From NCBI GenBank assembly GCA_036785375.1, contig JAWMAR010000478.1, positions 930,001 through 994,000 on the forward strand: a stretch of DNA of 64,000 bases, in the 5' to 3' direction. This stretch comes from Leucoraja ocellata. Its lineage: Eukaryota. The notes beneath the pieces are model-generated. The model worked only from the letters and a program-made list of their open reading frames with translations, made no database searches and had not been told where the DNA came from. Made by a program: the position numbers and the translations under genes. Shown piece by piece: positions 1 to 63,269 of this stretch (its first letter is position 1; each line of letters opens with the position of its first letter).

Positions 1-236
1 TTCAAAGGTTATTTATAGGTCACATACACCATAGGTGTAGTTAAATGCTTGTTGCCAATGCAGCACATAAAAACAAAAATACAGACATAACAATAATAAC
101 GAGATTTAAACATAAAAAACATCTCCCCACAATGGTTCCCATTATGAGGGAAGGCACAATGTCCAGTCCCCATCCCATGTCCATCCACAATCGGGCCTGT
201 TGAGGCCTCCGCAGTCGCCTTTATGGAGGCCCGATG
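1..236 (-). mobile_element. Truncated copy of the SINE-like element (representative of ~14 similar copies)
   Basis: Homologous to 45845-46090 and cut at ggcccgatg. Confidence 0.6.
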
Positions 237-488
237 CAGTTGAGTGTAGTTTAAGGCAGTTGTGTTGATGTTAGTTTTGCTACCTGCTTTCCCTGACTTC
301 CAGGTGTATTTTTAGGTTGTGAAGGTTTGGGCACGATCCGATAACTTGTCATCGAATACATTTTTCTCCACGGGTACTGATAGACTCCAAGATTCCTTAG
401 ATACAAAATAAACTGTATACGACTTCTTTAATGTTTATTTCTGAATTCATTATCAAATATTACTCACGGCAGTCTGTTTCTCCCACAG

Positions 489-521
489 GAGGGTCAAGTG
501 GATACGATAATGGAGGCTACG
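489..521 (+). CDS. micro-exon 1 GGSSGYDNGGY
   Basis: cacAG|33 nt|GTaaat. Confidence 0.7.
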
Positions 522-3500
522 GTAAATATATTATAGTTTAATACATTCTTTACTTAATCCACAAAGCACTGATAGACAGGTGACAGTCAATGTTAGAATA
601 CCGCAGAAGGCTAAAGGACCAGGGTTAATGTTCCATGTCGACGATCTGCCGGTGGTGACCCCGTCAGTGATAGGAGCAGAAATCCCTCACAGTTGGCTTT
701 ACAAGGAGGGAAAAGGTAGTGAATGAAGCAGGAATCAACACGGCCGATGTTGTCGAATTGAGTTCAGTGCAGTTAAGTTGGATTTAGATGAGTCGTGCAG
801 TTGAGATGAGTTGAGGTTGGTCTAATTGAGTTGAATATAATACAGTTCAGTTCATGCAGTTGAGTTAAGTAGGTTGGTGCAGTTGTGTTTCGTGCAGTCG
901 TCTTGAGTTTAGTGCTGTTGAGTTGATGTTAATGCTGTTGAGTTGAAAGGTTCAAAGGTTATTTATAGGTCACATACACCATAGGTGTAGTGAAATGCTT
1001 GTTGCCAATGCAGCACATAAAGAAAAAAAACAGACATAACAATAATAAAGAGATTTAAACATAAAAAACATCTCCCTACAATGGTTCCCATTATGAGGGA
1101 AGGCACAATATTCAGTCCCCATCCCATTCCCACCCATTGTCGATCCTATTGAGGCTCCACTTCTCCTTTATGGAGGCCCGATGCAGTTCAGTGTAGTTTA
1201 AGGCAGTTGTGTTGATGTTAGTCTTGCATCCTGCCTTCCTTGACTTCCAGGTGTATTTTTAGGTTGTGAAGGCTTGGGCCCGATCCGATAACATGTCATC
1301 ACATACATTGTTCTCCACAGATATTGGTAGACTCCAAGATTCCTTAGCTACAAAATAAACTGTATACGACTGCTTTAATGTTTATTTCTGAATTCGTCAT
1401 CAAATATTACTCACGGCAGTCTGTTTCTCCCACAGGAGGGTCAAGTGGATACGATAACGGAGGCTACGGTAAATATATTATAGTTTAATATATTATACAC
1501 TTAATCCACAAAGCACTGATAGACAGGTGACAGGCAATGTTAGAATACCACAGAACGCTAAAACACCAGGGTTAATGTTCCATGTTGACGATCTGCCGGT
1601 AGTGACCCCGTCAGCGAGAGGAGCAGAATTCCCTCACGGCTGGCTTTACAAGGAGGGAAAAGGCAGTGAATGAAGCGGGAATCCCAGGGATCAACACGGC
1701 TGATGTTGTTGTGATGAGTTGAGCTTGGGTCAGTTGAGTTGAATATAGCTGAGTTTAGTACAGTTGAGTTAAGTCCAATTGAGTTGAGTTGGATTTATGT
1801 AGTTACGTTCATGCAGCTGAGTTGAGCTTAGCGCAGTTGTGTTGAATGCAATTAGGTTGAGTTTAGTGGAGTTGATTTGAGTAAAGAAGTTGAGTTGAGT
1901 TCATGTTGAGTTTTTAGTGCAGTTGAGTAGCCTTGAGATTCGTGCAGTTGAGTTTAATACAGTTGAATTGGTTGCAATTTAGTTGATTTGTTTATTGCAG
2001 TTGAGTGTACTGCAGTTGAGTTGCAATGGTTTAAGTGCAGTTGAGTTGGGTTTAGTGCAGTTGATTTTAGTATGGTGCACTTGAGTCAAGCTCAATGCAG
2101 TTGAGTGTAGTTTAAGGCAGTTGTGTTGAAGCGTTGATGTTAGTTTTGCAACCTGCCTTCCCCGACTTCCAGGTGTATTTTTAGTTTGTGAAGGTTTGGG
2201 CCCGATCCGATAACATGTCATCGCATACATTTTTCTCAACATGTACTGGTAGACTCCAAGATTCCTTAGCTACAAAATAAACTGTATACGACTGCTTTAA
2301 TGTTTATTTCTGAATTCGTCATCAAATATTACTCACGGCAGTCTGTTTCTCCCACAGGAGGGTCAAGTGGATACGATAACGGAGGCTACGGTAAATATAA
2401 AGTGGTTTAGTACATTCTTCACTTAATCCACAAAGCACTGATGGACAGGTGACAGTCAATGTTAGAACACCACAGAGGCTAAAGAACCTGGGTTCATGTT
2501 CCATGTCAACAACCTGCCAGTGGTGACCCTGTCAGTGAGAGGAGCAGAATTCCCCCACGGTTGGCTTTACAAGGAAGGAAAAGGTAGTGAAGGAATCTGG
2601 AATCCCAGGGATCAACAGGACTGTTGTTGTTGTGATGAGTTGAGCTTAGACCAGTTTAGTTGAATTTAGCTGAGTTTAGTACAGTTGAGTTAAGTCCAAT
2701 TGAGTTGAGTTGGATTTATGTAGGTACGTTCATGCAGCTGAGTTGAGCTTAGCCCAGTTGTGTTGAATGCAATTGGGTTGAGGTTGGTTGAGTTTAGTGG
2801 GGTTGATATGAGTAAAGAGTTGAGTTGAGTTCATGTTGAGTTTTTAGTGCAGTTAAGTTGAGTTTAGTGCAGTTGAGTTTAATACAGTTGAATTCGTTGC
2901 AATTTAGTAGATTTGTTTATTGCAGTTGAGTGTACTGCAGTTGAGTTGCAATAGTTTATATGCAGTTGAGTTGGGTTTAGTGCAGTTGATTTTAGTATGG
3001 TGCACTTGAGTCAAGCTCAATGCAGTTGAGTGCAGTTTAAGGCAGTTGTGCTGATGTTAGTTTTGCAAATTGCCTTCCCTGACTTCCAGGTGTATTTTTA
3101 GTTTGTGAAGGTTTGGGCCCGATCCGATAACATGTCATCACATACATTTTTCTCTAAAGGTACTGGGAGACTCCAAGCTTCCTTAACTACAAAATAAACT
3201 GTATACAACTTCTTTAATGTTTATTTCTGAATTTGTCATCAAATATTACTCACGCCAGTCTGTTTCTCCCACAGGAGGGTCAAGTGGATACGATAACGGA
3301 GGCTACGGTAAATATAATGTGGTTTAGTCCATTCTTCACTTAATCCACAAAACAATGATGGACAGGTGACAGTCAATGTTAGAATACCGCAGAAGGCTAA
3401 AGGACCAGGTTAATGTTCCATGTCGACAACATGCCGGTGGTGACCCCGTCAGTGAGAGGAGCAGAATTCCCTCATGGTTGGCTTTACAAGGAGGGAAAAG

Positions 3501-6500
3501 GTAGTGAATAAAGCAGGAATCCCAGAGATCAACATGATGGATGTTGTTGAGTTGAATTCAGTGCAGTTAAGTTGAATTTAGATGATTCGTGCAGTTGAGA
3601 TGAGTTGAGGTTGGTCTAATTGAGTTGAATATAATACAGTTGAGTTCATGCAGCTGAGTTGAGTAGGTTAGTGCAGTTGAGTTTCATGCAGTCGTCTTGA
3701 GTTTCGAGCAATTGAATTGGTTTTTGTGCAGTTGAGCTGGGTTTAGTGCAGTTTAGTTCGGTTTAGTGCAGTTATCGTTGGTTTAGTTGAATGTAGTTAA
3801 GGTGAGTTAAGTTTAGCTTAGTGCAGTTGAGTTTGGTGTAGTTGAGTGCAGTTGTTGAGTTGAGTTTAGTGCAGATGCGTTGAATTAAGTGCAGTCGAAT
3901 TAAGTGCAGTTGAGTTGCTTTTAATGCAGTTGGGTTGAGTTGAATGCAGATAAGTTGTGTTCAGGTAAATGCAGTTGAGTTGAGTGGAGTTAAGTTTTGT
4001 GCAGTTGATTTGTGTTGAGTTTAGTGCAGTTGGGTTTACTCCACTTGAGGTGAGTTTAGTGCTGTTGATGTAGTTGATGTAGTTCAGTTGAATATAATGG
4101 AGTTGAGTTGTTGAGTTTGAGTTGAGTTGAGTGTCATTGAGTGCAATGCAGTTGAGGTGAGTGCGGTTGAGGTGATAGCGGTTAACGTTATACTTGAGTT
4201 CAGTACAGTTGTGTTGAGGTAAATGCAGCTGGGTTGAGATGAGTTGAGTGGAGTGGAGTTTATTGCATTCGCGTTGAGTAGGTACTGTTGAGTTTAATGT
4301 AGATCAGTTGAATTTAATGCATTTGACTTTAGTTTAGTATAGTGAAGCGGAGTTGAGTGCAGTTGTGTTGATGTCAGTGCAGCTTCTCTGAGTTGAATTT
4401 AGTGCAGTTGATTTGGTGCAGTTGAGTTGGGTTAAGAGTAGTTTTGTAAATGTTCGTGTAGTTGAGGAGATGTGTTTAGTGAAGCTGCATTGCGTATGGC
4501 GCATCTGAGTTAAGTGCAGGTGAGTTGAATTGTGTTTACTGCAGTTGAGTTGTGATGAATAGTGTTGAGTTGCGTTGAGATGAGTGCAGTTCAGTTGATT
4601 TTTATTTAGTTTAGTGAATTTCGGTTTAGATTGGTTTAGATATGTTTTCTAACCTGAAGATCGTACCCATCACTCTGAGATAATAATGTTCAATATCTTC
4701 TGTGCTCTTTTCTCTGTTTCTCCAACAGGAGGATCAAGTGGATACAATAAGAACAAAGGCTACGGTAAATATAATGTAGTTTAATATATTCTTCACTTAA
4801 TCCACAAAACAATGATGGACAGGAGACAGTCAATGTTAGAATACCGCAGAAGGCTAAAGGACCAAGGTTAATGTTCCATGTCGACAACCTGCTGGTGGTG
4901 ACCCCGTCAGTGAGAGGAGCAGAAATCCCTCACAGTTGGCTTTACAAGGAGGGAAAAGGTAATGAATGTAGCAGGAATCCCAGGGATCAACACGGCCGAT
5001 GTTGTCGAATTGAGTTCAGTGCAGTTAAGTTGGATTTAGATGAGTTGTGCAGTTGAGATGAGTTGAAGTTGGTCTAATTGAGTTGAATATAATACAGTTG
5101 AGTTCATGCAGTTGAGTTGAGTAGGTTGGTGCAGTTTTAGTTTTGTGCAGTCATCTTGAGTTTCGAGCAGTTGAGTTGGCTTTCCTGCAGTTGAGCAGGG
5201 TTTAGTGCGGTTTAGTGCGGTTTAGTGCGGTTGTCGTTATTTTAATTGAATGTAGTTAAGGTTAGTTAAGTTTAGCTTAGTGCGGTATGGTTGAGTTTGG
5301 TGTAATTGGGTTCCATTGAGTGACGTTGTGGAGTTCAGTCACTGCGGTTGAGTGGAACGCGTTTGTAGAATGCCGTTGAGTGGAACAGAGTTGAGTGCAG
5401 TTGTGATGAGTTTATTGCTGGAGTTCACTGCAGTTGAGTTTAGTGCTGTTGAGTTGATGTTAATGCTGTTGAGTTGAAAGGTTCAAAGGTTATTTATAGG
5501 TCACATACACCATAGGTGTAGTTAAATGCTTGTTGCCAATGCAGCACATAAAAACAAAAATACAGACATAACAATAATAATGAGATTTAAACATAAAAAA
5601 CATCTCCCCACAATGGTTCCCATTATGAGGGAAGGCACAATGTCCAGTCCCCATCCCATGTCCATCCACAATCGGGCCTGTTGAGGCCTCCGCAGTCGCC
5701 TTTATGGAGGCCCGATGCAGTTGAGTGTACTTTAAGGCAGATGTGTTGAAGTGTTGATGTTAGTTTTGCTACCTGCCTTCCCTGACTTCCAGGTGTATTT
5801 TTAGGTTGTGAAGGTTTGGGCCCGATCCGATAACTTGTCATCGCATACATTTTTCTCCACGGGTACTGATAGACTCCAAGATTCCTTGGCTACAAAATAA
5901 ACTGTATACGACTTCTTTAATGTTTATTTCTGAATTCATTATCAAATATTACTCACGGCAGTCTGTTTCTCCCACAGGAGGGTCAAGTGGATACGATAAT
6001 GGAGGCTACGGTAAATATATTATAGTTTAATACATTCTTTACTTAATCCACAAAGCACTGATAGACAGGTGACAGTCAATGTTAGAATACCGCAGAAGGC
6101 TAAAGGACCAGAGTTAATGTTCCATGTCGACGAGCTGCCGGTGGTGACCCCGTCAGTGATAGGAGCAGAAATCCCTCACAGTTGGCTTTACAAGGAGGGA
6201 AAAGGTAGTGAATGAAGCAGGAATCAACACGGCCGATGTTGTCGAATTGAGTTCAGTGCAGTTAAGTTGGATTTAGATGAGTCGTGCAGTTGAGATGAGT
6301 TGAGGTTGGTCTAATTGAGTTGAATATAATACAACTGAGTACATGCAGTTGAGTTAAGTAGGTTGGTGCAGTTGTGTTTCGTGCAGTCGTCTTGAGTTTA
6401 GTGCTGTTGAGTTGATGTTAATGCTGTTGAATTGAAAGGTTCAAAGGTTATTTATAGGTCACATACACCATAGGTGTAGTGAAATGCTTGTTGCCAATGC

Positions 6501-9500
6501 AGCACATAAAGAAAAAAAACAGACATAACAATTATAAAGAGATTTAAACATAAAAAAACATCTCCCTACAATGGTTCCCATTATGAGGGAAGGCACAATA
6601 TTCAGTCCCCATCCCATTCCCACCCATTGTCGATCCTATTGAGGCTCCACTTCTCCTTTATGGAGGCCCGATGCAGTTCAGTGTAGTTTAAGGCAGTTGT
6701 GTTGATGTTAGTCTTGCATCCTGCCTTCCTTGACTTCCAGGTGTATTTTTAGTTTGTGAAGGCTTGGGCCCGATCCGATAACATGTCATCACATACATTG
6801 TTCTCCACAGATATTGGTAGACTCCAAGATTCCTTAGCTACAAAATAAACTGTATACGACTGCTTTAATGTTTATTTCTGAATTCGTCATCAAATATTAC
6901 TCACGGCAGTCTGTTTCTCCCACAGGAGGGTCAAGTGGATACGATAACGGAGGCTACGGTAAATATATTATAGTTTAATATATTATACACTTAATCCACA
7001 AAGCACTGATAGACAGGTGACAGGCAATGTTAGAATACCACAGAACGCTAAAACACCAGGGTTAATGTTCCATGTTGACGATCTGCCGGTAGTGACCCCG
7101 TCAGCGAGAGGAGCAGAATTCCCTCACGGCTGGCTTTACAAGGAGGGAAAAGGCAGTGAATGAAGCGGGAATCCCAGGGATCAACACGGCTGATGTTGTT
7201 GTGATGAGTTGAGCTTAGGTCAGTTGAGTTGAATATAGCTGAGTTTAGTACAGTTGAGTTAAGTCCAATTGAGTTGAGTTGGATTTATGTAGTTACGTTC
7301 ATGCAGCTGAGTTGAGCTTAGCGCAGTTGTGTTGAATGCAATTGGGTTGAGTTTAGTGGAGTTGATTTGAGTAAAGAAGTTGAGTTGAGTTCATGTTGAG
7401 TTTTTAGTGCAGTTGAGTAGCCTTGAGATTCGTGCAGTTGAGTTTAATACAGTTGAATTGGTTGCAATTTAGTTGATTTATTTATTGAAGTTGAGTGTAC
7501 TGCAGTTAAGTTGCAATGGTTTAAGTGCAGTTGAGTTGGGTTTAGTGCAGTTGATTTTAGTATGGTGCACTTGAGTCAAGCTCAATGCAGTTGAGTGTAG
7601 TTTAAGGCAGTTGTGTTGAAGCGTTGATGTTAGTTTTGCAACCTGCCTTCCCCGACTTCCAGGTGTATTTTTAGTTTGTGAAGGTTTGGGCCCGATCCGA
7701 TAACTTGTCATCGCATACATTTTTCTCCACGGGTACTGATAGACTCCAAGATTCCTTGGCTACAAAATAAACTGTATACGACTTCTTTAATGTTTATTTC
7801 TGAATTCATTATCAAATATTACTCACGGCAGTCTGTTTCTCCCACAGGAGGGTCAAGTGGATACGATAATGGAGGCTACGGTAAATATATTATAGTTTAA
7901 TACATTCTTTACTTAATCCACAAAGCACTGATAGACAGGTGACAGTCAATGTTAGAATACCGCAGAAGGCTAAAGGACCAGAGTTAATGTTCCATGTCGA
8001 CGATCTGCCGGTGGTGACCCCGTCTGTGATAGGAGCAGAAATCCCTCACAGTTGGCTTTACAAGGAGGGAAAAGGTAGTGAATGAAGCAGGAATCAACAC
8101 GGCCGATGTTGTCGAATTGAGTTCAGTGCAGTTAAGTTGGATTTAGATGAGTCGTGCAGTTGAGATGAGTTGAGGTTGGTCTAATTGAGTTGAATATAAT
8201 ACAACTGAGTACATGCAGTTGAGTTAAGTAGGTTGGTGCAGTTGTGTTTCGTGCAGTCGTCTTGAGTTTAGTGCTGTTGAGTTGATGTTAATGCTGTTGA
8301 ATTGAAAGGTTCAAAGGTTATTTATAGGTCACATACACCATAGGTGTAGTGAAATGCTTGTTGCCAATGCAGCACATAAAGAAAAAAAACAGACATAACA
8401 ATAATAAAGAGATTTAAACATAAAAAACATCTCCCTACAATGGTTCCCATTATGAGGGAAGGCACAATATTCAGTCCCCATCCCATTCCCACCCATTGTC
8501 GATCCTATTGAGGCTCCACTTCTCCTTTATGGAGGCCCGATGCAGTTCAGTGTAGTTTAAGGCAGTTGTGTTGATGTTAGTCTTGCATCCTGCCTTCCTT
8601 GACTTCCAGGTGTATTTTTAGGTTGTGAAGGCTTGGGCCCGATCCGATAACATGTCATCACATACATTGTTCTCCACAGATATTGGTAGACTCCAAGATT
8701 CCTTAGCTACAAAATAAACTGTATACGACTGCTTTAATGTTTATTTCTGAATTCGTCATCAAATATTACTCACGGCAGTCTGTTTCTCCCACAGGAGGGT
8801 CAAGTGGATACGATAACGGAGGCTACGGTAAATATATTATAGTTTAATATATTATACACTTAATCCACAAAGCACTGATAGACAGGTGACAGGCAATGTT
8901 AGAATACCACAGAACGCTAAAACACCAGGGTTAATGTTCCATGTTGACGATCTGCCGGTAGTGACCCCGTCAGCGAGAGGAGCAGAATTCCCTCACGGCT
9001 GGCTTTACAAGGAGGGAAAAGGCAGTGAATGAAGCGGGAATCCCAGGGATCAACACGGCTGATGTTGTTGTGATGAGTTGAGCTTGGGTCAGTTGAGTTG
9101 AATATAGCTGAGTTTAGTACAGTTGAGTTAAGTCCAATTGAGTTGAGTTGGATTTATGTAGTTACGTTCATGCAGCTGAGTTGAGCTTAGCGCAGTTGTG
9201 TTGAATGCAATTAGGTTGAGTTTAGTGGAGTTGATTTGAGTAAAGAAGTTGAGTTGAGTTCATGTTGAGTTTTTAGTGCAGTTGAGTAGCCGTGAGATTC
9301 GTGCAGTTGAGTTTAATACAGTTGAATTGGTTGCAATTTAGTTGATTTGTTTATTGCAGTTGAGTGTACTGCAGTTGAGTTGCAATGGTTTAAGTGCAGT
9401 TGAGTTGGGTTTAGTGCAGTTGATTTTAGTATGGTGCACTTGAGTCAAGCTCAATGCAGTTGAGTGTAGTTTAAGGCAGTTGTGTTGAAGCGTTGATGTT

Positions 9501-20338: not shown

Positions 20339-20392
<54 letters not shown>

Positions 20393-53300: not shown

Positions 53301-56300
53301 GGTTGAGTTGAATTCAGATAAGTTGTGTTACGGTAAATGCAGTTGAGTTTCGTGCAGTTGATTTGTGTTGAGTTTAGTGCAGTTGGGTTTATTCCATTTG
53401 AGTTAAGTTTGGTGCTGTTGATGTAGTTCAGTTGATCATAATGGAGATGAGTTGAGTTGAGTTTAGTTTAGTTCTGTGGAGCGGAGTTGAGTTGAGTGCG
53501 GTTGACATGGGTGTGGTTGATGTGAGAATTGAGTTCAAAACAGTTGTGTTGAGGTAAATGCAGTTGAGTTGAGATGGTTTTAGTGGAGTGAAGTGGGTAC
53601 TGTTGAGTTTAATGTAGTTCAGTTGAATATAATGCATTGCGTATGGTGCATCTGAGTTGACTTTAGTTTAGTATAGTGAAGCGGAGTTGAGTGCAGTTGT
53701 GTTGATGTCAGTGCAGCTTCTCTGAGTTGAGTTTAGTGCAGTTGGTTTAGTGCAGTTGAGTTGGGTTAAGTGTAGTTTTGTGGATGTTCATGCAGTTGAG
53801 GAGATGAGTTTAGAGCTGCTGCGTTGTGTATGGTGCATCTGAGTTGAGTTAAGTGCAGGTGAGTTGATTTGTGTTTACTGCAGTTGAGTTGTGGTGAATA
53901 GTGTTGAGTTGCGTTGAGATGAGTGCAGTTGAGTTGATTTTAATTTAGTGTAGTGAATTTCGGTTTAGGTTGGTTTCGATCAGTTTTCTAACCTGTAGAT
54001 CGTACCCATCACTCTGGGATAATAATGGTCAATATCTTCTGTGCTCTTTCTAAAACCACCATATGCTTCTTGGTTTGGGCTGAACATAACTGAACAAAAT
54101 ACACCCTAACCTAATTGCTATAAGTTTGCATCCTGCCTTCCCTGACTTCAGGGTGTATTTTTAAGTTGTGATGGTTTGGGCATGATCCGATAACTTGTCA
54201 TCGCAAACTTTTTTCTCCACAGGTATTGGTAGACTCCAAGATTCCTTAGACTACAAAATAAACTGTATACGACTGAGTTCATGCTTATTTCTGAATTTGT
54301 CATCAAATATTACTCACGCCAATCTGTTTCTCCCACAGGAGGGTCAAGTGGATACGATAACGGAGGCTACGGTAAATATATTATTGTTTAATATATTCTT
54401 CACTTAATCCACAAAACTATGATGGACAGGTGACAGTCAATGTTGGAATACCGCAGAAGGCTAAAGGACAATGTTCCATGTCGACGATCTGCCAGTGGTG
54501 ACCCCGTCAGTGAGAGGAGCAGAATTCCCTCACAGTTGGCTTTACAAGGAGGGAAAAGGTAGTGAATGAAGCAGGAATCCCAGAAGTCTACACTGCCGAT
54601 ATTGTGATAAGTTGAGTTTATGGCGGTTGAGTTGAATTTAGCTGAGTTTAGTGCAGTTAAGTTGAGTTTCGTCCAATTGAGTTGAGTTGAATTTAATGTT
54701 GTTATGTTCATGCAGTTGAGTTGGGTTTAGAGCAGTTGAGTTGAATGCAATTAGTTTGAGGTTAGTGCAGTTGACTTGAGTTTAGTGTAGTAGAGTTGAG
54801 TTTAGTGCAGTTCAGTTACGTTGAAATTAGTGCAGTTGAGTTTATTACAGTTGAGATAGTTGCTATTTAGTTGATTTGTATTTTGCAGTAGAGTTGGGTG
54901 TACGGCAGTTGTGTTGCGATGGTTTATGTGCAGTTGATGGGTTTAGTGCAGTTGATTTTAGTATGGTGCACTTGTGTCAAGTTCAAAGCGGTTGAGTGGA
55001 GTTTAATGCAGTTGTGTTGATGTTAGTGCAGTTTCTCTGAGTTGAGTTTAGTGCAGTTGCTTTAGTGCAGTTGCTTTAGTGCAGTTGCTTTAGTGCAGTT
55101 GCTTTAGTGCAGTTGCTTTAGTGCAGTTGCTTTAGTGCAGTTGCTTTACTGCAGTTGAGTTAGTGCAGTTGAGTTGGGTTAAATGAGTTGTGTTGATGTT
55201 CGTGCAGTTGAGGAGATGAATTTAGTGCAGCTGCGTTGCGTATAGTGCACCTGAGTTGAGTTCACTGCAGGTGAGTTTATTTCTGTTTACCGCAGTTGAG
55301 TTGATGTGAATTGTGTTGAGTTGAAATTAGTGCAGTTGAGTTGATATTAATTTAGTTTACTGAATTTCAGTTTAGAATGGTTTAGTTAAGTTTACTAACC
55401 TGTAGCTCGTACCCACCACTCTGGGAATAATTCTGGTCAACCTCTTCTGCACTCTTTCGAAAACCACCATATGCTTCTTAGATTAGGTTGAACATAACTG
55501 AACACAATACACCCAAACCAAATTGCTGTAAGGTTGTATCCTGCCTTGCCTGACTTTGAGGTGTATTTTTAGGTTGTGAAGGTTTGTGCACGATCCGATC
55601 AATTGTCATCAAAATCGTTCTTTCTCCACAGGTACTGATAGACTACAATATTCCTTAGCTATGAAATAAACTGTACACGACTGAGTTAAAATGTAAATTC
55701 CTGAATTAATGTCCTGCAATATTATTCACGCTAGTCTGTTTCTCCCACAGGAGGGTCAAGTGGATCCGATAAGAACACAGACTACGGTAAATTTAATGAC
55801 GTTTAATATTCTTTACTGCATCCACAAACACTGATGGACAGGTGACAGCCAATGTTGGAATAACGTTGAAGGCTAAAGGACCAGAGTTAATACTTCATGT
55901 GGCGACCTGCCAGTGCAGACAACGTCAGCGAATGGAGCAGAATTCGCGCACGGTTTGCTTTTCACGGAGGGGAAAGGGTAGTGAATGAAGGAGGAATCCC
56001 AGGGATCAACATGACAGATGTTGTTGAGTTGAGTTCAGTGCAGTTGAGTTGAATTTGGATGAGTTTAATGCATTTGAGATGAGTTGAGTTTAGTCCAATT
56101 GAGTTCAATATAATGGAGTTGAGTTAGTGCAGTTGAGTTGTGTTGAGTTTTGTGCAGTTATGTTGGGTTTCGTGCAATTAAGTTGAGTTCAGTGCATTCG
56201 AATTTGGTGCAGTTGTGTGTAGTTTATTTCAGTGGACTTGAGTTGAGCTTAGTGAAGGTGATTGTAGTGGAGCTGGGTTGTGTTTAGTGCAGTTGGTTGA

Positions 56301-59300
56301 AGTTTGTGCAATTGAGTTCAGTTGAGTATAGTGCACTTGGATTGAGCGGAGTTGAGTGTAGTTGTGTTGAGGTTAGCGCAGTTGAGGAGTTGAGTTTAGT
56401 GCAGCTGAGTTGAGTTGTGTTTCGTGCGGTTGAGTATAGTTTAGTTGAGTTCAGTGAAGTTGAGTTGAATGTAGTTGAGTGGTGTACAGTTGTGTTGATG
56501 TGAATGCATTTGTGTTCAGTGGTGTTAAATTTAGTGCAGTTGAGTTGAGTGTAGTTGAGGAATTGAGTGTTGTGATGAGGTTAATGCAGTTGAGGAGGTC
56601 AGTTTAGTGCAGATGCGTTGAGTTTAGTGCAGATTAATTAAGTGCAGTTGGGTTGAGTTGAATTCAGGTAAGTTGTGTTCAGGTATTGCAGTTGAGTTGA
56701 GTTTCGTGCAGTTGATTTGTGTTGAGTTTAGTGCAGTTGGGTTTATTCTATTTGAGTTTAGTGTTGTTAAGTTTAATGTAGTCCAGATAAATATAATGCA
56801 GTTGAGTTTAGCTTAGTTATCGGAGCGGAGTTGAATGCAGTTGTGGAGTTGAGTTCATTGTGATTAAGTTGAATATAGTTGAGTTTAGTGTAGTTGAGTT
56901 GGGTACAGTTGTGCTGTGGTAAATGCAGTTGAATTTAGTGGTCTTAAATTTCGTGCAGTTAAGTTGAGTGCAGTTGAGGAATTGAGTTTAGTTGTGATGA
57001 GGTTAATGCAGATGAGTTGGGTTTAGTGCAATTGGGTTGAGTTGAATGCAGATTAGTTGAATTTAGTTGTGTTGAGGTGAGTTGAGTTTATTCCATTTGA
57101 GTTGATTTGAGATAAGTGTTGTTGAGTTTAATGTTATTCAATCGAATACAAGTTGTTGAATACATGTGAGTTTAGTTTAGTTATTGGAGCGGAGTTGAGT
57201 CCAGTTATGTTGAGTTTAATGCAGTTGTGGAGTTGAGTCTAGTGTTGTTTAGTGTAGTTGAGGTGAGTACAGTTGAGTTTAGTGTAGTTGAGTTCAGTTG
57301 AGTTTCGTGCAGTTTTGTGTGGTTGTGTTTAGTGCAGTTGGGTTTATTCCATTTGAGTTTAGTGCTGTTGAGTTTAATGTAGTTCAGTTAAATATAATGC
57401 AGTTGAGTTTAGTTTAGCTTAGTTATTGGAACAGAGTTGAGTGCAGATGTGGAGGAGTTTAGTGCAGATGTGCGGAGGTGAATTGAGCTTAGTTGTTGAG
57501 TTTATTGCAGTTGAGTTGAATTCATTGGAGTTGCGATGATTGAAGTTGAGTTGGGTTTAGAGCAGTTGATTTTAGTATGGTGCACTTGAGTTAAGTTCAA
57601 TGCCGTTGAGTGCAGTTGAGTGCAATTGTGTTGAGATTAGTGCAGTTGAGTTGTGTTAAGTGTAGTTTTGTTGATGTTAGTGCAGTTGAGGAGTTGAGTT
57701 TAGTGCAGTTGCGTTTGCTGCAACAGCATTGTGTTTGGTGCAGCTTAGTTGAGTTAAGTGCAGGTGAATTGAATTGTGTTTAGTGCAGTTAAGGAGAATC
57801 ATGTTGATTTGAGATTAGTGCAGAGTTGTTGATATTAATTTAGTTTAGTGAATTTCAGTTTGGATTGGTTCAGTTAAGTTTTCTAACCTGTAGCTCATAC
57901 CTACTACTCTAAGAATAATTCTGGTTAACGTCTTAGAAACATAGAAAATAGGTGCAGGATGAGGTCATTCGGCCCTTCGAGCCAGCACCACCATTCATTC
58001 TGATCATGGCTGATCATCCCCTATCAATAACCCATGCCTGCCTTCTCCCCATATCCCTTGACTCCACTAGCCCCTAGAGCTCTATCTAACTCTCTCTTAA
58101 ATCCATCCAGCGACTTGGCCTCCACTGCCCTCTGTGGCAGGGAATTCCATAAATTCACAACTCTCTGGGTGAAAAAGTTTTTACTCACCTCAGTCTTAAA
58201 TGATCCCCCCTTTATTCTAAGACTGTGGCCCCTGGTTCTGGACTCGCCCAACATTGGGAACATTTTTCCTGCATCTAGCTTGTCCAGTCCTTTTATAATT
58301 TTATATGTTTCTATAAGATCCCCCTCATCCTTCTAAACTCCAGTGAATACAAGCCTAGTCTTTTCAATCTTTCCTCATATGACAGTCCTGCGATCCCAGG
58401 GATCAATCTCGAGAACCTAGGCTGCACAGCCTCAATCACAAGGATGTCCTTCCTCAAATTAGGAGACCAACACTGTACACAATACTCCAGATGTGGTCTC
58501 ACCAGAGCCCTATACAAATGCAGAAGAACCTCTTTAATCGTATACTGAAATCTTCTGCACTCTTTCTAAAATAACCATACCCTTCTTGGATTAGGGTGAA
58601 CATAACTGAACACAATACAACCTAATCTAATTGCTGCAAAGTTGCATCCTGTAGTCCCTGACTTCGGGGTGTATTTTTAGGTTGTGAAGAATGGGCCCGA
58701 TCCGATAACTCGTCAACAAATACTTTCTCTCTTCACAGGAACTGGTAGACTCCAATATTCCTTGGGTACAAAATAATCTGTATGCGACTGAGTTAAAATG
58801 TTCATTTCTGAATTCACGTCATCAAATATTATTCACGCCAGTCTGTTTCTCTAAAGTGGATATGATAAGTACGGAGGCCACGGTTAATTTATTGGAGTTT
58901 AATATATTCTTTAATTAATCCACAAACCACTGATGGACATGTGACAGCCAATGCTGAAATAACGCAGACGTCTAAGGACCAGGGTTAATGTTTCATGTTG
59001 ACGACCTGCCAATGGAGACCCCGTCAGTGAAGGGGGCAGAATTTCCTCACGGATGTATTTTTAAGGAGGGAAAGGGTAGTGAATGGAACAGGAATTCGAC
59101 GGATTAATACTGCAAATGTTGTTGAGTTCATTGCAGTTGAGTTGATCTGAGTATAGTTCAATTTAGTTGAGTTGAATTGAATGCAGTTGAGTTTATGCTG
59201 TCGAGTTGAATGGTTGAGTGCAGTTGAGTTGATTTTAGAGCAGTTGAGATAAGTTGAATACAATTGGGTTGAGGTTAGTGGAGCTTAGTTGAGTTCAGTG

Positions 59301-62300
59301 CAGTTGAGTTTAGAGTAGTTGAAATGAATTAAGTTTAGAGCAGTTGAATCGAGTGCAGTTGAGTTTAGTTCAATTGGGTTGAATGCAGATAAGTTGAATT
59401 GAGTTATGTTCAGTTGTGTTGAGGTAAATGCACTCGAGTTGAATGCTGTTGATTTGTGTCGAGTTGAGTTTAGTGCAGTTGGGTTTATTGCATTTGAGTT
59501 GAATTGAGCGTAGTGCTATTGTGTTTAATGTGGTTCAGTTGAATATAACGCAGTTGAGTTTAGTTTAGTGGAACGGAGTTTAGTGCAGTTGTGCTGAGTT
59601 TTGTGGAGATGTGATTAGAGTAGTTGAGATGAGTGTAGTTGAGTCGAGTTTAGTGCAGTTGATTTGAGATTAGTGCAGTTGAGTTTAATGCAGTTGTTGT
59701 GTTAGGTATAATTTAGTTGACTTGATTATTGCAGTTGAGTTGAGTGTGCTGCAGTTGAGTTGCGATGATTTAAGTGCAGTTAAGTTGGGTTTAGTGTAGT
59801 TGATTTCCGTATTGTGCACTTCAGTCAATGCAATTGAGCACAGTTATGTTGATAGTGTGGTTTCTCTGTGTTTTGTGGAGTTGAGTTGGTTTAAATGCAG
59901 GTGAGTTGATTTGTGTTTACTGCAGTTGACTTGAGGTGAATTGAGTTGTTGAATTGAGATTAGTGCAGTTGAGTTGATTTTAATTTAATTTAAGTAATTT
60001 CAGTTTAAATTGGTTTAGATAAGTTCACTAACCAGCTGCTCATACCCACAACTCTGGGAATAATTCTGGTCAAAGTCTTCTGCACTCTTCCTAAGACCGC
60101 CACATCCTTCTTGGTTTAGGGTGAACATAACTGAACACAATACACCCTAACCTAATTGCTGTAAGGTTGCATCCTGCCGTCCCTGATTTCAGGGTGTATT
60201 TTTAGGTTTTGAAGGTTTGGGCCCGATCCGATAATTTGTCATTAAAATGTTTCTTTCTCCACAGGTACTGGTAGACCCCAAGAGTCCTTTGCTACAAATT
60301 AATCTGTATACGACTGAGTTGAAATGTTCATTTCTGAATTCATGTCATTAAATGTTATTCACACCAGTTTGTTTCTCCTACAGGAGTGTCAAGTGGATAC
60401 GATGAGAGCGGAGGCTCAGGTACATTTATTGTCCTTTAATATATTCTTCACTTAATCCACAAAGCACTGATGGACAGGTGACAGTCAATGTTGGAATAAC
60501 GCAGAAGACTAAAGGACCAGGGTTGATGTTCCATGTCGACGACCTGCCAATGGTGACCCTGCCAGTCAGAGGAGCAGGTTTGCCTTTTCAAGTAGGGGAA
60601 GGGTAGTGAATGAAGCGGGAATCCCAGGGATCCACACGGTGGATGTTGTTGCGTTGAGTTCAGTTCGGTGCAGTAGAGCTGAATTTAGCTGAGTTTAGTG
60701 CAGTTGAGTTTTTAGTCCAATTGGGTTGAGTTGTGTTTGGGTTCATGCAGGTGAGTTGAGTTTAGTGCAGTTTCGTTGAGTTGAATGCAATTGTGTTGAG
60801 GTAAGTGCAGTTGAATTCAGTTCAGTGCTGTTGAGTTGGGTAAAGTGAGTTGAGTTCATGCAGTTGAGTTGTGTCCAATTGGCTTGAGATCAGTGCAGTT
60901 TAGTGCAGTTAAAATGAGTTGAGTTTAGTGCAGTTGAGCTGAGTGTATTTGAGTTAGATTTAGTGCAGTTGAGTTGATTTAAGTTTCGAGCAGTTGAGTT
61001 GAGTTTAGTGCAGTTGTTGTTAGTTGAGTTGAGACTAGTGATGGTGAGTTAAGTTGGGCTTTATGCAGTTTAGTTGAGTTCAGAGTAACTGGGTTGCTCT
61101 GAGTGCAGTTGTGCAGTTATTGAGTGCAGTTATTAAAAATAACTGTGCATAGTTCCCTGAAGGTGGAATCTCATGTAGATAGGATGGTAAAGAAAGCTTT
61201 TGGTGTGCTAGCCTTTATAAATCAGAGCATTGAGTATAGAAGTTGGGATGTAATGTTAAAATTGTACAAGGCATTGGTGAGACCAATTCTGGAGTATGGT
61301 GTACAATTTTGGTCGCCCAATTATAGGAAGGATGTCAACAAAATAGAGAGAGTACAGAGGAGATTTACTTGAATGTTGCCTGGGTTTCAGCAACTAAGTT
61401 ACAGAGAAAGGTTGAATAAGTTAGGTCTTTATTCTTTGGAGCGCAGAAGGTTAAGGGGGGACTTTATCAAGACCTCTATCGTCTTTAAAATGATGAGAGG
61501 GATAGACAGAGTTGACGTGGATAAGCTTTTCCAATTGAGAGTAGGGAAGATTCAAAAAAGGACATGACTTCAGAATTAAGGGACAGAATTTTAGGGGTAA
61601 CATGAGGGGGAACTTCTTTACTCAGAGTGGTAGCTGTGTGGAATGAGCTTCCAGTGGAAGTGGTGGAGGCAGGTTCGATTTTATCATTTAAAAATAAATT
61701 GGATAGGTATATGGACGGGAAAGGAATGGTGGGTTATGATCTGGGTGCAGGTAGATGGGACTAGGGGAAAATAAGTGTTCGGCACGGACTTGTAGGGCCG
61801 AGATGGCCTGTTTCCGTGCTGTAATTGTTATATGGTTATATGGTGTTGACGTTAGTGCAGACTAGGAGTTGAGTTACTGCAGTTGAGTTACTGCAGTTGA
61901 GTTACTGCAGTTGAGTTACTGCAGTTGAGTTACTGCAGTTGGCTTGAGTTGACTTCAGTGCAGTTGATTTCGGCGCAGTTGCGTGCAGTTGACTAGAGTG
62001 CAGTTCAGTTTTTTGTGCAGTTCAGTTGAGTTTAATGATGTTGAGTTTAGTACAGCGCAGTTGTATGCAGTTGTTGTCAGTTTAAAGCAGTTGAATGGTT
62101 ATTTGCTGTGCATTTGAATTTGCTGACGTTGAGTGGCGTTGAAGTTGAGTGGCGTTTAGTGCTGTTGAGTTGAGGTTAGTAGATTTGAGGTTAGTAAATT
62201 TGAGCCGAGTGCGGTTGAGTCGAGTGCGGTTGAGCAGACTTGTTTACTGCAGTTGAGTTGAGTGCACGTGAGCTGAGTTGAGTGCAGTTGGGTTGAAATT

Positions 62301-63054
62301 TGGGCAAGTTCGCTGAGTTGTGTTTAGTGCAGTTGGGTTTAGTGCAGTTGTTTACAGTTGAGTTGGGTTATGTGTGTTGGGTTTAGTGAACTTGAGTTGA
62401 GTTTAATGCAGATGTGTTGAGATTAGTGCAGATTTTCAGAGTTGAGTTTTGTGCAGTTTGGTTTAGTGCAGTTGATTTGTGTTGATGTTAGTGCAGTTGA
62501 GTAGATGAGCTTAGTAGGGTTGCACTGAATTTAGTGCAGGTGAGTTGAGGTGAGTTTAGTGCCGTTGAGTTTAGGTAAGCATAATGCAGTAATCGCTGCA
62601 ATCTAGTGCAGAGATTATTGCATTTGAGTTGATTTTAACTTAGTTTAGTGAATTTCAGTTTAGATTAGTTTAGTTTAGTAACGTGCAACTAGTACCCACT
62701 ACTCTAGGAATTCTGGTCAACCTCTAATGCAATATTTTTAAAACCACCATATTCTTTTCGTATTAGGGCAAACATAGCTGAACTCAATACACCGTAACCA
62801 AATTGTTGTAAGGATGCATCATGACTTCACTGACTTCGGAGTGGATTATGGAAAGTTTTGGCCCAATCTGATGATGTCATCACAACTTACTTTCTCCACA
62901 GATGCTGGTTGACTCCAAGATTAATCTGCTACAGATGTAACTGTATATGACTGAGCTAATATGTTAATTACTGAATTCATTCCATCAAATTATTCACACC
63001 AGTCTGTTTCTCCCACAGGAGGGTCAAGTGTATCCTACATCACTGGCAGCTATG
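489..63054 (+). CDS. Internal part of a putative multi-micro-exon gene encoding a Gly/Ser/Tyr-rich repeat protein (GGSSGYDNGGY)n; 43 intact exons, ~483 aa in window
   Basis: Recurrent tactcac..tctgtttctcccacAG|33 or 36 nt|GTaaat. All intact exons are 3n long, symmetric phase 1-1 and stop-free, and many variants are synonymous in this frame. No start or stop exon is visible. Confidence 0.75.
1436..1468 (+). CDS. micro-exon 2 GGSSGYDNGGY
   Basis: cacAG|33 nt|GTaaat. Confidence 0.7.
2358..2390 (+). CDS. micro-exon 3 GGSSGYDNGGY
   Basis: cacAG|33 nt|GTaaat. Confidence 0.7.
3275..3307 (+). CDS. micro-exon 4 GGSSGYDNGGY
   Basis: cacAG|33 nt|GTaaat. Confidence 0.7.
4729..4764 (+). CDS. micro-exon 5 GGSSGYNKNKGY
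   Basis: aacAG|36 nt|GTaaat; upstream branch-point block deleted. Confidence 0.65.
5978..6010 (+). CDS. micro-exon 6 GGSSGYDNGGY
   Basis: cacAG|33 nt|GTaaat. Confidence 0.7.
6926..6958 (+). CDS. micro-exon 7 GGSSGYDNGGY
   Basis: cacAG|33 nt|GTaaat. Confidence 0.7.
7848..7880 (+). CDS. micro-exon 8 GGSSGYDNGGY
   Basis: cacAG|33 nt|GTaaat. Confidence 0.7.
8795..8827 (+). CDS. micro-exon 9 GGSSGYDNGGY
   Basis: cacAG|33 nt|GTaaat. Confidence 0.7.
9717..9749 (+). CDS. micro-exon 10 GGSSGYDNGGY
   Basis: cacAG|33 nt|GTaaat. Confidence 0.7.
10634..10666 (+). CDS. micro-exon 11 GGSSGYDNGGY
   Basis: cacAG|33 nt|GTaaat. Confidence 0.7.
12088..12123 (+). CDS. micro-exon 12 GGSSGYNKNKGY
   Basis: aacAG|36 nt|GTaaat; same upstream deletion as exon 5. 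Confidence 0.65.
13337..13369 (+). CDS. micro-exon 13 GGSSGYDNGGY
   Basis: cacAG|33 nt|GTaaat. Confidence 0.7.
14285..14317 (+). CDS. micro-exon 14 GGSSGYNNGGY
   Basis: cacAG|33 nt|GTaaat. Confidence 0.7.
15221..15253 (+). CDS. micro-exon 15 GGSSGYDNGGY
   Basis: cacAG|33 nt|GTaaat. Confidence 0.7.
16138..16170 (+). CDS. micro-exon 16 GGSSGYDNGGY
   Basis: cacAG|33 nt|GTaaat. Confidence 0.7.
17864..17899 (+). CDS. micro-exon 17 GGSSGYNKNRGS
   Basis: aacAG|36 nt|GTaaat. Confidence 0.7.
18814..18846 (+). pseudogene. micro-exon copy 18 with acceptor AG>GG (probably skipped)
   Basis: ctcccacGG|gagggtc...; donor intact. Confidence 0.6.
19731..19763 (+). CDS. micro-exon 19 GGSSGYDNGGY
   Basis: cacAG|33 nt|GTaaat. 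Confidence 0.7.
20133..20942 (+). mobile_element. GC-rich non-autonomous retroposon (SINE-like/LINE-derived), copy 1, with internal poly-G
   Basis: Ends in aattaaa(ttgaatc)n tail; flanked by aaatg on both sides (probable TSD); homologous to 23088-23949 and 28785-29648. Confidence 0.75.
20256..20391 (+). repeat. ~135-nt poly-G tract
   Basis: Almost pure G with a few A. Confidence 0.95.
21514..21546 (+). CDS. micro-exon 20 GGSSGYDNGGY
   Basis: cacAG|33 nt|GTaaat. Confidence 0.7.
22444..22476 (+). CDS. micro-exon 21 GGSSGYNNGGY
   Basis: cacAG|33 nt|GTaaat; synonymous TAC>TAT. Confidence 0.7.
23088..23949 (+). mobile_element. GC-rich non-autonomous retroposon, copy 2
   Basis: (ttgaatc)n tail, aaatg TSD, same flanks as copies 1 and 3. 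Confidence 0.78.
24521..24553 (+). CDS. micro-exon 22 GGSSGYDNGGY
   Basis: cacAG|33 nt|GTaaat; synonymous GGA>GGT and TAC>TAT. Confidence 0.7.
25458..25490 (+). CDS. micro-exon 23 GGSSGYDNGGY
   Basis: cacAG|33 nt|GTaaat. Confidence 0.7.
27192..27227 (+). CDS. micro-exon 24 GGSSGYNKNRGS
   Basis: aacAG|36 nt|GTaaat. Confidence 0.7.
28141..28173 (+). CDS. micro-exon 25 GRSSGYNIGGY
   Basis: cacAG|33 nt|GTaaat. Confidence 0.65.
28785..29648 (+). mobile_element. GC-rich non-autonomous retroposon, copy 3
   Basis: (ttgaatc)n tail, aaatg TSD, same flanks as copies 1 and 2. Confidence 0.78.
30221..30253 (+). CDS. micro-exon 26 GGSSGYDNGGY
   Basis: cacAG|33 nt|GTaaat; synonymous GGT, TAT. Confidence 0.7.
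31158..31190 (+). CDS. micro-exon 27 GGSSGYDNGGY
   Basis: cacAG|33 nt|GTaaat; synonymous GGC>GGA. Confidence 0.7.
32870..32905 (+). CDS. micro-exon 28 GGSSGYNKNRGS
   Basis: aacAG|36 nt|GTaaat; synonymous GGG>GGT. Confidence 0.7.
33813..33845 (+). CDS. micro-exon 29 GGSSGYDNGGY
   Basis: cacAG|33 nt|GTaaat. Confidence 0.7.
34742..34774 (+). CDS. micro-exon 30 GGSSGYDNGGY
   Basis: cacAG|33 nt|GTaaat; synonymous TAC>TAT. Confidence 0.7.
35520..36347 (+). mobile_element. 5'-truncated CR1 (HER1-like) LINE: RT C-terminus and 3' UTR
   Basis: ORF with YNVDKCEVIHFG, LVRPHLEYCVQFWSP, LEFRRLRGDLIETYK; (ttctatg)n tail. Confidence 0.95.
36699..36731 (+). CDS. micro-exon 31 GGSSGYDNGGY
   Basis: cacAG|33 nt|GTaaat. 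Confidence 0.7.
38405..38440 (+). CDS. micro-exon 32 GGSSGYDNNRGY
   Basis: aacAG|36 nt|GTaaat. Confidence 0.7.
39575..39607 (+). CDS. micro-exon 33 GGSSGYDNGGY
   Basis: cacAG|33 nt|GTaaat. Confidence 0.7.
40529..40561 (+). CDS. micro-exon 34 GGSSGYDNGGY
   Basis: cacAG|33 nt|GTaaat. Confidence 0.7.
41267..41299 (+). CDS. micro-exon 35 GGSSGYDNGGY
   Basis: cacAG|33 nt|GTaaat. Confidence 0.7.
42467..43013 (-). mobile_element. Penelope-like element fragment (linker and GIY-YIG C-terminal region), internally deleted and hypermutated
   Basis: Minus-strand translation includes RKDRSLRNS, AEHL, NSPSHS.DLSV and RKLEEQH..RLGS..PGG.N.E, matching the vertebrate PLE ORF end. Confidence 0.85.
43014..43781 (+). 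mobile_element. 5'-truncated CR1 LINE fused to the Penelope fragment
   Basis: Near-identical to the 35.5 kb and 51.7 kb copies; ttctatgtttctatggttct tail. Confidence 0.95.
44191..44223 (+). CDS. micro-exon 36 GGPSGYDNGGY
   Basis: cacAG|33 nt|GTaaat. Confidence 0.65.
45117..45149 (+). CDS. micro-exon 37 GGSSGYDNGGY
   Basis: cacAG|33 nt|GTaaat. Confidence 0.7.
45845..46330 (-). mobile_element. Longest copy of a second SINE-like/LINE 3'-end element carried by the array
   Basis: The minus strand ends in aaataacctttgaac.tttcaa, a short tandem tail. Truncated ~240-bp copies lie at about 1, 943, 5474, 6433, 8302, 12833, 13791, 18301, 21024, 24031, 27649, 29730, 33321 and 39071; partial copies at 40922, 42363/43781 and 49022. 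Confidence 0.65.
46358..46480. repeat. 20-bp minisatellite (GAGATGATGATAATGACGTT) ~6x
   Basis: Seen directly. Confidence 0.9.
47315..47438. repeat. 11-bp perfect minisatellite (GTTTGTGTTGG) ~11x
   Basis: Seen directly. Confidence 0.95.
48281..48313 (+). CDS. micro-exon 38 GGSSGCDNEGY
   Basis: cacAG|33 nt|GTaaat. Confidence 0.65.
49661..49693 (+). CDS. micro-exon 39 GGSSGYDKGGY
   Basis: cacAG|33 nt|GTaaat. Confidence 0.68.
51026..51061 (+). CDS. micro-exon 40 GGSSGSDKNEGY
   Basis: cacAG|36 nt|GTaaat. Confidence 0.65.
51733..52544 (+). mobile_element. 5'-truncated CR1 LINE
   Basis: RT C-terminal ORF; (ttctatg)3 tail; TSD tgatgtta at 51725-51732 and 52543-52550. Confidence 0.95.
54339..54371 (+). 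CDS. micro-exon 41 GGSSGYDNGGY
   Basis: cacAG|33 nt|GTaaat. Confidence 0.68.
55047..55148. repeat. 14-bp minisatellite (TTTAGTGCAGTTGC) ~7x
   Basis: Seen directly. Confidence 0.9.
55751..55786 (+). CDS. micro-exon 42 GGSSGSDKNTDY
   Basis: cacAG|36 nt|GTaaat. Confidence 0.65.
57935..58550 (-). mobile_element. 5'-truncated CR1 LINE, different subfamily, antisense
   Basis: Minus-strand YRALVRPHLEYCVQCWSP and FFTQRVVNLWNSLP; tail agaaacatagaaa; 4-bp tctt duplication. Confidence 0.93.
58857..58882 (+). pseudogene. Decayed micro-exon copy 43
   Basis: A deletion removes cacag-gagggtc; the remainder is 26 nt; the donor is weakened to gttaat. Confidence 0.6.
60384..60419 (+). CDS. micro-exon 44 GVSSGYDESGGS
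   Basis: tacAG|36 nt|GTacat. Confidence 0.55.
61136..61844 (+). mobile_element. 5'-truncated CR1 LINE, third subfamily
   Basis: LYKALVRPILEYGVQFWSP and LERRRLRGD; (ttatatgg)n tail. Confidence 0.92.
61867..61941. repeat. 14-bp minisatellite (AGTTGAGTTACTGC) ~5x
   Basis: Seen directly. Confidence 0.9.
63019..63054 (+). CDS. micro-exon 45 GGSSVSYITGSY
   Basis: ttctcccacAG|36 nt|GTaaat in the most diverged unit. Confidence 0.6.
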
Positions 63055-63269
63055 GTAAATTTATTGTGATTCAATATATTTTTCTCTTATTCCACAAAGC
63101 ACTGATGGACAGGGGACAGTCAGTAGTGGGATAACACAGAAGGTTAACGAACAAGGGTTAATATTTTATGTCGGCGACCTGCCAGTAGAAACCCCGTCAG
63201 TGAGAGGTGCAGATTTCACTCACTGTTCAAGGAGGGAGGGTGTAATGAATGAAGCAGGTATCCTCGGTT

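Follow-up and report, generated by a model that had tools for sequence, protein, structure and literature searches.

A satellite-like array in the skate Leucoraja ocellata is probably the micro-exon repeat region of a gene for a Gly/Tyr-rich secreted protein

Can DNA that looks like a satellite be the coding body of a vertebrate gene? The question is raised by a 64-kb stretch of the skate Leucoraja ocellata, positions 930001-994000 of contig JAWMAR010000478.1 (C478) inside a 3.44-Gb assembly; this whole stretch of 64,000 nucleotides is called the window below. An initial annotation had proposed that the window hides an array of micro-exons encoding a (GGSSGYDNGGY)n protein with one repeat per exon. 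Our analysis indicates that the window very probably forms the repeat-bearing part of a protein-coding, spliced gene of the skate, here called gene 1. The proposed one-repeat-per-exon organization is supported by a complete in-frame gene model and by the recurrence of the same layout in paralogues.

Unit detection relied on a fuzzy scan of both strands of the window, which returned 44 units, every one on the plus strand, spanning positions 489-63054. In a further unit (about 58854-58882) a deletion removed the acceptor together with the 5' end of the exon; including it gives the 45 units originally counted. Both splice dinucleotides, AG and GT, are present in 43 of the 44 units (33 with a 33-nt and 10 with a 36-nt exon, together 1449 nt), identical to the earlier count, while the acceptor of the unit at 18814 is mutated from AG to GG. 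Each unit is about 1 kb long, with longer units toward the 3' end, and consists of one intron and one 33- or 36-nt exon. The introns are packed with degenerate GTTGA-type simple repeats and the coding density in the window is about 2%, in agreement with the earlier view that open reading frame (ORF) finders would miss such a gene. A branch-point-like motif had been assigned to each unit; TA(C/T)T(C/G)AC is found at most 40 nt upstream in 45 of the 51 gene-1 micro-exon units. Donors mostly read G/GTAAAT (slash, splice site), without a G at position +5. The block pair 234-8095 and 7585-15467 is 98.7% identical and represents a recent duplication that added whole exon-intron units. Other duplicated blocks pair 14958-19982 with 29968-34991 and 22189-28550 with 27886-34220, and identity across duplicated blocks is 92-99%. 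All four flank indels of 1-2 nt described previously were located (about 3408, 14384, 19679 and 45171), the four reported non-CpG synonymous changes are visible among the aligned units, and the junction k-mer said to be missing from genomic DNA, a 17-mer, is absent from both strands of the window and of 610 kb of the contig.

Joining the exons of the window leaves two frames free of stops, phase 1 (GGSSGYDNGGY) and phase 0 (EGQVDTITEAT-like), while the third frame contains 45 stops. The claim that phase-1 joining gives a stop-free repeat stands, but the window by itself does not single out phase 1 in this respect. Phase 1 is settled because the upstream ATG exon ends one base into a codon, and the phase-0 reading is ruled out by the phase of this exon and by its dN/dS of 1.18 (see below).

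The gene was completed by comparing profiles and paralogues across 610 kb of the contig around the window, and it spans about 108 kb (C478 ~890197-998085). Its 5' end, located about 40 kb upstream of the window, begins with a TATA-like CATAAAAGG, after which come a short leader and, at 890231, an ATG exon encoding a 17-residue hydrophobic peptide. Gly/His/Tyr-rich exons of 24, 30, 30, 30, 30 and 132 nt follow the ATG exon, and 49 of the 51 gene-1 micro-exon units are intact. The stop exon at C478:995101 (42 nt) reads Gly-Tyr-stop and retains a donor, and the non-coding last exon from C478:997929 carries two AATAAA signals. First and last exons had been expected in neighbouring DNA, and both exist in frame as a signal-peptide exon, a stop exon and a polyadenylated non-coding exon. 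In the resulting model, 57 of 59 units are splice-intact, all internal exons are multiples of three and the first stop falls in the last coding exon, giving 666 amino acids. After the leader, the composition is 38.8% Gly, 16.8% Tyr and 16.5% Ser with only 1.4% Pro and 0.5% Val, and the predicted mature mass is 63.3 kDa. All coding introns of gene 1 and its paralogues are in phase 1, and 90% of the gene-1 coding region lies in symmetric exons of 6-36 bp. The formula (GGSSGYDNGGY)n holds for the repeat body, but the predicted product also comprises a signal peptide and an N-terminal part rich in His, Gly and Tyr, and other family members exist beside it. Over the last three exons of gene 1, two read sets cover introns and are DNA-like and two, only guessed to be RNA, have zero depth at the exon bins, providing no evidence either way. 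The stop exons at C478:1058590, 1103366 and 995101 are modified micro-exons with a stop at codon 3, in which the 42-nt length and the donor are kept and the old repeat is untranslated.

A plain satellite or transposon-derived repeat with coincidental splice-like motifs would fit introns full of simple repeats and units that are recent duplicates. It does not fit an in-frame signal exon, a stop exon and polyadenylation signals, nor paralogous genes that combine the same layout with different repeats. The satellite reading is thus largely refuted by gene anatomy and we regard it as extremely improbable.

Selection was assessed by tree-free pairwise and per-column counts. In 45 of 50 gene-1 units, a decoy acceptor-like site lies about 115 nt upstream of the exon, and its use would lead into a stop. 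The AG is retained in 38 of 39 unique units at the true acceptor versus 26 of 39 at the decoy (Fisher p = 0.0006, which is optimistic because units share ancestry). The four splice columns are less variable than random flank columns (0.026 versus 0.19, P = 0.0004, for 58 unique units with broken ones included); restricted to window units, the same test gives P = 0.033. Exon lengths are all multiples of three, whereas 22 of 24 distinct flank indels are not. No stop occurs in any of 56 intact exons, though 9 of 105 single changes would create one. These counts indicate that splicing and frame are under selection.

Genes 2 and 3 are tandem paralogues downstream of gene 1 with the same layout. Gene 2 (18 exons, 382 amino acids, predicted mature mass 37.2 kDa) combines a 573-nt Gly/Tyr/His exon with 13 acidic micro-exons, and gene 3 has 8 exons encoding 218 amino acids (19.9 kDa). 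Promoter, signal exon and 3' exon are conserved across the three genes, and common to the family are the signal exon, a short DS(Y/F)P exon, a stop exon reading GY-stop or DY-stop and a non-coding last exon. Searching the assembly gave 34 signal-exon matches on 9 contigs and at least 40 matches of the 3' exon on 14 contigs. The exons common to the family are also present in five additional genes, four on C478 and one on C4290; one of the five gave no intact ATG-to-donor call. The end of the long exon is not defined in 4 of the 7 family copies tried, and for this reason these cannot count as intact genes. In the C428 copy (C428:1655199-1672723), which has the signal and second exons, and on five related contigs carrying the 3' exon (C1622, C1568, C3280, C3810 and C3492), Gly/Tyr exons were not found; these copies are 95-98% identical and look truncated. 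One pair of gene-2 micro-exons lies just 224 nt apart (C478:1035473-1035697), the second having a shortened branch-point region.

The 280-kb block with genes 1-3 is 97-99% identical to an inverted twin, and N gaps mark the centre and the end of this mirror. The mirror arms are C478 ~560000-834858 and 835059-1114707, and a second mirror pairs 1114908-1164017 with 1164218-~1204000; both are centred on a 200-N gap and 96-99% identical. SPARC and tyrosinase genes also occur as pairs in the assembly. The mirror arms are probably two haplotypes scaffolded head to head, which would inflate gene counts. A true 280-kb palindrome with a second gene set is unlikely given the N gaps at the centre and end, the second mirror and the pairing of other genes. 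The true copy number is probably below the match count, many matches being haplotig duplicates. The gene-1 twin in the opposite arm is stop-free and has 39 intact micro-exons versus 49, a difference of 333 nt; provided that both arms are assembled correctly, this suggests a length polymorphism of gene 1.

The sequence indicates that the gene assembles a secreted repeat protein from symmetric phase-1 cassettes, with one repeat of 11-12 residues per exon. Unequal crossing-over between homogenised units would add or remove repeats, changing the length without shifting the frame, and a splice-site mutation would drop one repeat in frame through skipping of the broken exon. The predicted gene-1 product would be a secreted Gly/Tyr/Ser-rich chain of about 63 kDa, presumably disordered. 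Its flexible Gly-rich chain, with Tyr at about every sixth residue, may be cross-linked oxidatively, the partners being Lys, His and Cys. The family as a whole appears to comprise secreted proteins rich in Gly, Tyr and His, with masses of 20-63 kDa for the three genes modelled in full. Their likely role is that of a bulk structural protein that hardens through oxidative Tyr cross-linking, and a high gene copy number would suit bulk secretion.

All skates are oviparous and lay egg capsules. Koob and Cox reportedly found that catechol oxidase tans the capsules of the little skate, whose proteins, of about 20-95 kDa, are rich in Gly, Ser, Pro and Tyr. The present family is compatible with these values in size and in its Gly, Ser and Tyr content but not in Pro. 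Among skate tissues, the oviducal (shell) gland is the one known for bulk secretion of tanned protein, and we tentatively put forward that it makes the present proteins as material of the egg capsule. According to the accessible text of one study (PMC8471067), the capsule is formed by the baffle zone of this gland, a zone that is better developed in egg-laying species. A further-reaching version, in which the family is the missing non-collagen Tyr-rich framework of the egg case, amplified in skates, appears somewhat unlikely; here gene 1 would tune the material by cassette gain, loss and skipping, with alleles about 111 residues apart and a ladder of chain lengths. The accessible parts of three further papers (PMC9999432, PMC8513177 and PMC11496042) contain nothing on skate capsule protein composition. 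A tyrosinase-family gene on C134 (minus strand, 1899-3341 of stretch L100) has an open frame of 480 aa in which GYD/GFD-type repeats come after a complete tyrosinase domain; it differs from the paired tyrosinase loci of the same search and is a candidate tanning enzyme.

Several observations weigh against this interpretation, concerning both the gene and its use. The family includes decaying members, as some copies look truncated. Pairwise dN/dS in the window favours phase 1 (0.38-0.40 versus 1.18 in phase 0); these values come from non-independent comparisons with synonymous rates inflated by CpG decay. With all three genes included, dN/dS is 0.75, and for genes 2 and 3 by themselves it is 0.86, indicating weak residue constraint. 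Exons are also about as variable as their flanks over genes 1-3 (pairwise p of 0.205 versus 0.203/0.186; 0.088 versus 0.107/0.116 in the window). The initial annotation had named equal divergence of exons, splice sites and flanks as grounds for rejection: the exon bases roughly show it, but splice sites and frame are clearly constrained. Such data could mean that gene 1 was once functional and its exon-intron unit is now a neutral tandem repeat, the gene being a pseudogene or most micro-exons being skipped. Three broken units, the prevalence of donors lacking the +5 G and the modest splice-column result for window units point in the same direction. This is nevertheless very unlikely in view of the contrast between true and decoy acceptors, the lack of any frameshifting exon length or exonic stop, the intact first, stop and last exons and a frame that is open in both arms. 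With splicing and frame constrained, exon divergence close to that of the flanks and dN/dS high, it rather appears that frame, splicing and overall composition are kept while single residues drift. Such behaviour would be normal for a material protein of low complexity, and it also leaves some room for partial decay.

As for the proposed tissue, collagen is named as the major capsule component in the accessible text of PMC10230700. Genes 1, 2 and 3 encode only 9, 5 and 2 Pro, 7, 4 and 0 Gly-Pro-type triplets and 4, 1 and 0 Cys. Runs of 5, 7 and 20 triplets with Gly at every third position, in genes 1-3 respectively, contain no Pro and do not correspond to a Pro-rich Gly-X-Y helix; collagen-like family members were not found in the fetched regions. 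With nearly no Pro, few Cys and a mainly collagenous capsule, the family could at most be the non-collagen capsule fraction. Moreover, a Gly/Tyr-rich composition occurs in many unrelated secreted materials and names no tissue. A real secreted Gly/Tyr-rich structural family could be used in epidermis, mucus coat, clasper or other glands, or act as a Gly/His-rich defence protein. The gene-level evidence (anatomy, frame, splicing selection) applies equally to such uses, no collagen-like member was found among the genes examined, and barrier tissues commonly contain proteins rich in Gly, Tyr and His. Arguments against such uses are the strong amplification within a lineage that lays eggs and a size range fitting rapidly secreted bulk material. 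No result of the analysis points to skin, and we regard a use outside the capsule as unlikely.

If the egg-capsule assignment is true, the family would provide the sequences behind a tough, tanned material of marine origin that is known chiefly through its amino-acid composition, and its assembly and evolution in egg-laying versus live-bearing lineages would become testable. A vertebrate gene that looks like a satellite and is invisible to ORF and homology searches also shows how such genes escape, and its decoy and true acceptors offer a clean natural test of splice-site selection.

The coordinates of all features are collected in the table. Within the introns of the window, a G-rich tract of 136 nt (91% matches) lies at 20256-20391, and retroelement-like fragments near the 3' end of the array (about 57930-58560 and 61140-61830) are presumably of the LINE type. 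Elsewhere on C478, the roughly 13 kb at 845500-858700 hold three or four blocks of a AGAGGGACAC-type simple repeat that give rise to long spurious ORFs. A single-exon lysophosphatidic-acid-receptor-like G protein-coupled receptor gene (C478:1235816-1237090, plus strand) lies about 240 kb downstream and appears fast-evolving, its best named matches being Amblyraja radiata (72%), Rhinoraja longicauda (57%), Pristis (50%), Mobula (49%) and sharks (43-48%). This one gene places the genome among skates at clade level, in line with the chondrichthyan origin assumed in the initial annotation.

Table. Features of the gene-1 locus, in window coordinates unless prefixed by C478
Feature	Coordinates	Strand
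Whole window, inside gene 1 (C478 ~890197-998085)	1..64000	+
33-nt phase-1 micro-exon	489..521	+
33-nt micro-exon	1436..1468	+
33-nt micro-exon	2358..2390	+
33-nt micro-exon	3275..3307	+
36-nt micro-exon	4729..4764	+
33-nt micro-exon	5978..6010	+
33-nt micro-exon	6926..6958	+
33-nt micro-exon	7848..7880	+
33-nt micro-exon	8795..8827	+
33-nt micro-exon	9717..9749	+
33-nt micro-exon	10634..10666	+
36-nt micro-exon	12088..12123	+
33-nt micro-exon	13337..13369	+
33-nt micro-exon	14285..14317	+
33-nt micro-exon	15221..15253	+
33-nt micro-exon	16138..16170	+
36-nt micro-exon	17864..17899	+
33-nt unit, broken acceptor (GG for AG), presumably skipped with frame kept	18814..18846	+
33-nt micro-exon	19731..19763	+
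33-nt micro-exon	21514..21546	+
33-nt micro-exon	22444..22476	+
33-nt micro-exon	24521..24553	+
33-nt micro-exon	25458..25490	+
36-nt micro-exon	27192..27227	+
33-nt micro-exon	28141..28173	+
33-nt micro-exon	30221..30253	+
33-nt micro-exon	31158..31190	+
36-nt micro-exon	32870..32905	+
33-nt micro-exon	33813..33845	+
33-nt micro-exon	34742..34774	+
33-nt micro-exon	36699..36731	+
36-nt micro-exon	38405..38440	+
33-nt micro-exon	39575..39607	+
33-nt micro-exon	40529..40561	+
33-nt micro-exon	41267..41299	+
33-nt micro-exon	44191..44223	+
33-nt micro-exon	45117..45149	+
33-nt micro-exon	48281..48313	+
33-nt micro-exon	49661..49693	+
36-nt micro-exon, diverged	51026..51061	+
33-nt micro-exon	54339..54371	+
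36-nt micro-exon, diverged	55751..55786	+
Decayed unit, normal acceptor and exon 5' end deleted	58854..58882	+
36-nt micro-exon, diverged, donor GTACAT	60384..60419	+
36-nt micro-exon, most diverged, final one before stop exon	63019..63054	+
Decoy acceptor-like site (example)	360..396	+
GTTGA/AGTTGAGTT-type degenerate simple repeat, intron filler giving satellite look (example)	750..946	+
Recent block duplication	234..15467	+
TATA-like CATAAAAGG and signal-peptide exon, phase-1 donor after 52 nt	C478, ATG 890231	+
24-nt exon	C478:894688	
Four 30-nt exons	C478:896738, 898079, 899793, 903269	
132-nt exon	C478:913184	
Broken unit	C478:914874	
Six micro-exons	C478:917633-929268	
Stop exon, 42 nt	C478:995101	
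Non-coding last exon, AATAAA at 998064 and 998080	C478 from 997929	

The family is apparently undescribed, though its architecture is of a known kind, and generically named partial models of it may already be present in public annotations of skates. A protein search with the long exon of gene 2 gave 0 matches of 8000 scored, the long exon of gene 3 gave 5 weak matches with no vertebrate among the named ones, a protein atlas returned no usable match, and Pfam yielded nothing for 6 family-exon queries. These nulls do not show novelty because such searches are insensitive to low-complexity sequence. No description of the gene family was found in the literature covered, which largely leaves out subscription journals. 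Compared with the tanned Gly/Tyr-rich eggshell and skate capsule proteins, the present family is likewise predicted to be secreted, is Gly/Ser/Tyr-rich, of similar size and from an oviparous skate; the capsule proteins differ in having Pro/hydroxyproline and disulfides.

Tyr-rich secreted proteins of fin rays and odontodes have to be considered as well. Actinodins carry the repeat motif C(N/D)PxxDPxC, which has 0 matches in genes 1-3, and actinodin identity is ruled out on this basis, while the Tyr-rich secreted character of actinodins is shared by the family. The non-collagen proteins of elastoidin are Tyr-rich in the available text of PMC6497306, which gives that role to actinodins. Elasmobranch Scpp, as far as described in the accessible part of PMC9122587, has a signal peptide, Tyr-rich and D/E-rich regions, phase-0 coding introns, a sparc-L locus, SxE sites and a PDYXXPXX motif. 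Both systems are secreted, low-complexity, Tyr-rich and elasmobranch, and were overlooked by annotation, but the introns described here are all phase 1 and the proteins Gly-rich. SxE sites number 0, 4 and 0 in genes 1, 2 and 3, those of gene 2 accompanying an acidic Asp/Glu tail, and SPARC-domain matches on the family contigs were 0 of 12 in this fragmented assembly. SCPP identity is ruled out by the phase-1 introns and the lack of SxE in gene 1. A Tyr-rich non-collagen part of fin rays (elastoidin, ceratotrichia) or an actinodin- or SCPP-like odontode/enameloid matrix is accordingly decidedly unlikely.

Vertebrate elastin and Xenopus FIM-B.1 are structural genes with one exon per repeat. Like elastin, gene 1 has many small symmetric phase-1 exons with a Gly codon split at the junctions and a predicted secreted Gly-rich product. 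It differs in having 0 KAA/AAK and hence no Lys-Ala cross-link runs, in being Tyr-rich with nearly no Pro or Val, and in belonging to a tandem multigene family. The absence of Lys-Ala and Val/Pro-rich domains rules out identity with elastin.

The closest parallels in gene architecture come from schistosomes. Micro-exon genes (MEGs) encode secreted proteins with about 80% of the coding region in symmetric 6-36-bp exons, according to the available text of PMC5825161. Gene 1, with its predicted secreted product and 90% of coding sequence in such exons, matches this description, while genes 2 and 3 reach just 45% and 20%. Alternative-splicing variants are confirmed for the schistosome genes, whereas the repeat exons here are near-identical. 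SmPoMuc of Schistosoma mansoni, in the accessible portion of PMC2576457, is a multigene family with a variable repeat number, in which a 27-bp exon lies in units of about 1 kb split by microsatellites and present up to about 20 times. The proteins are unrelated, a parasite mucin versus skate Gly/Tyr/Ser repeats, and the at most about 20 repeats there are N-terminal, while 49 intact ones form the protein body here. Both systems nevertheless share one short exon (27 bp there, 33 or 36 nt here) per repeat of about 1 kb including simple-sequence DNA, as well as homogenised introns, membership in a multigene family and a repeat number that depends on the copy.

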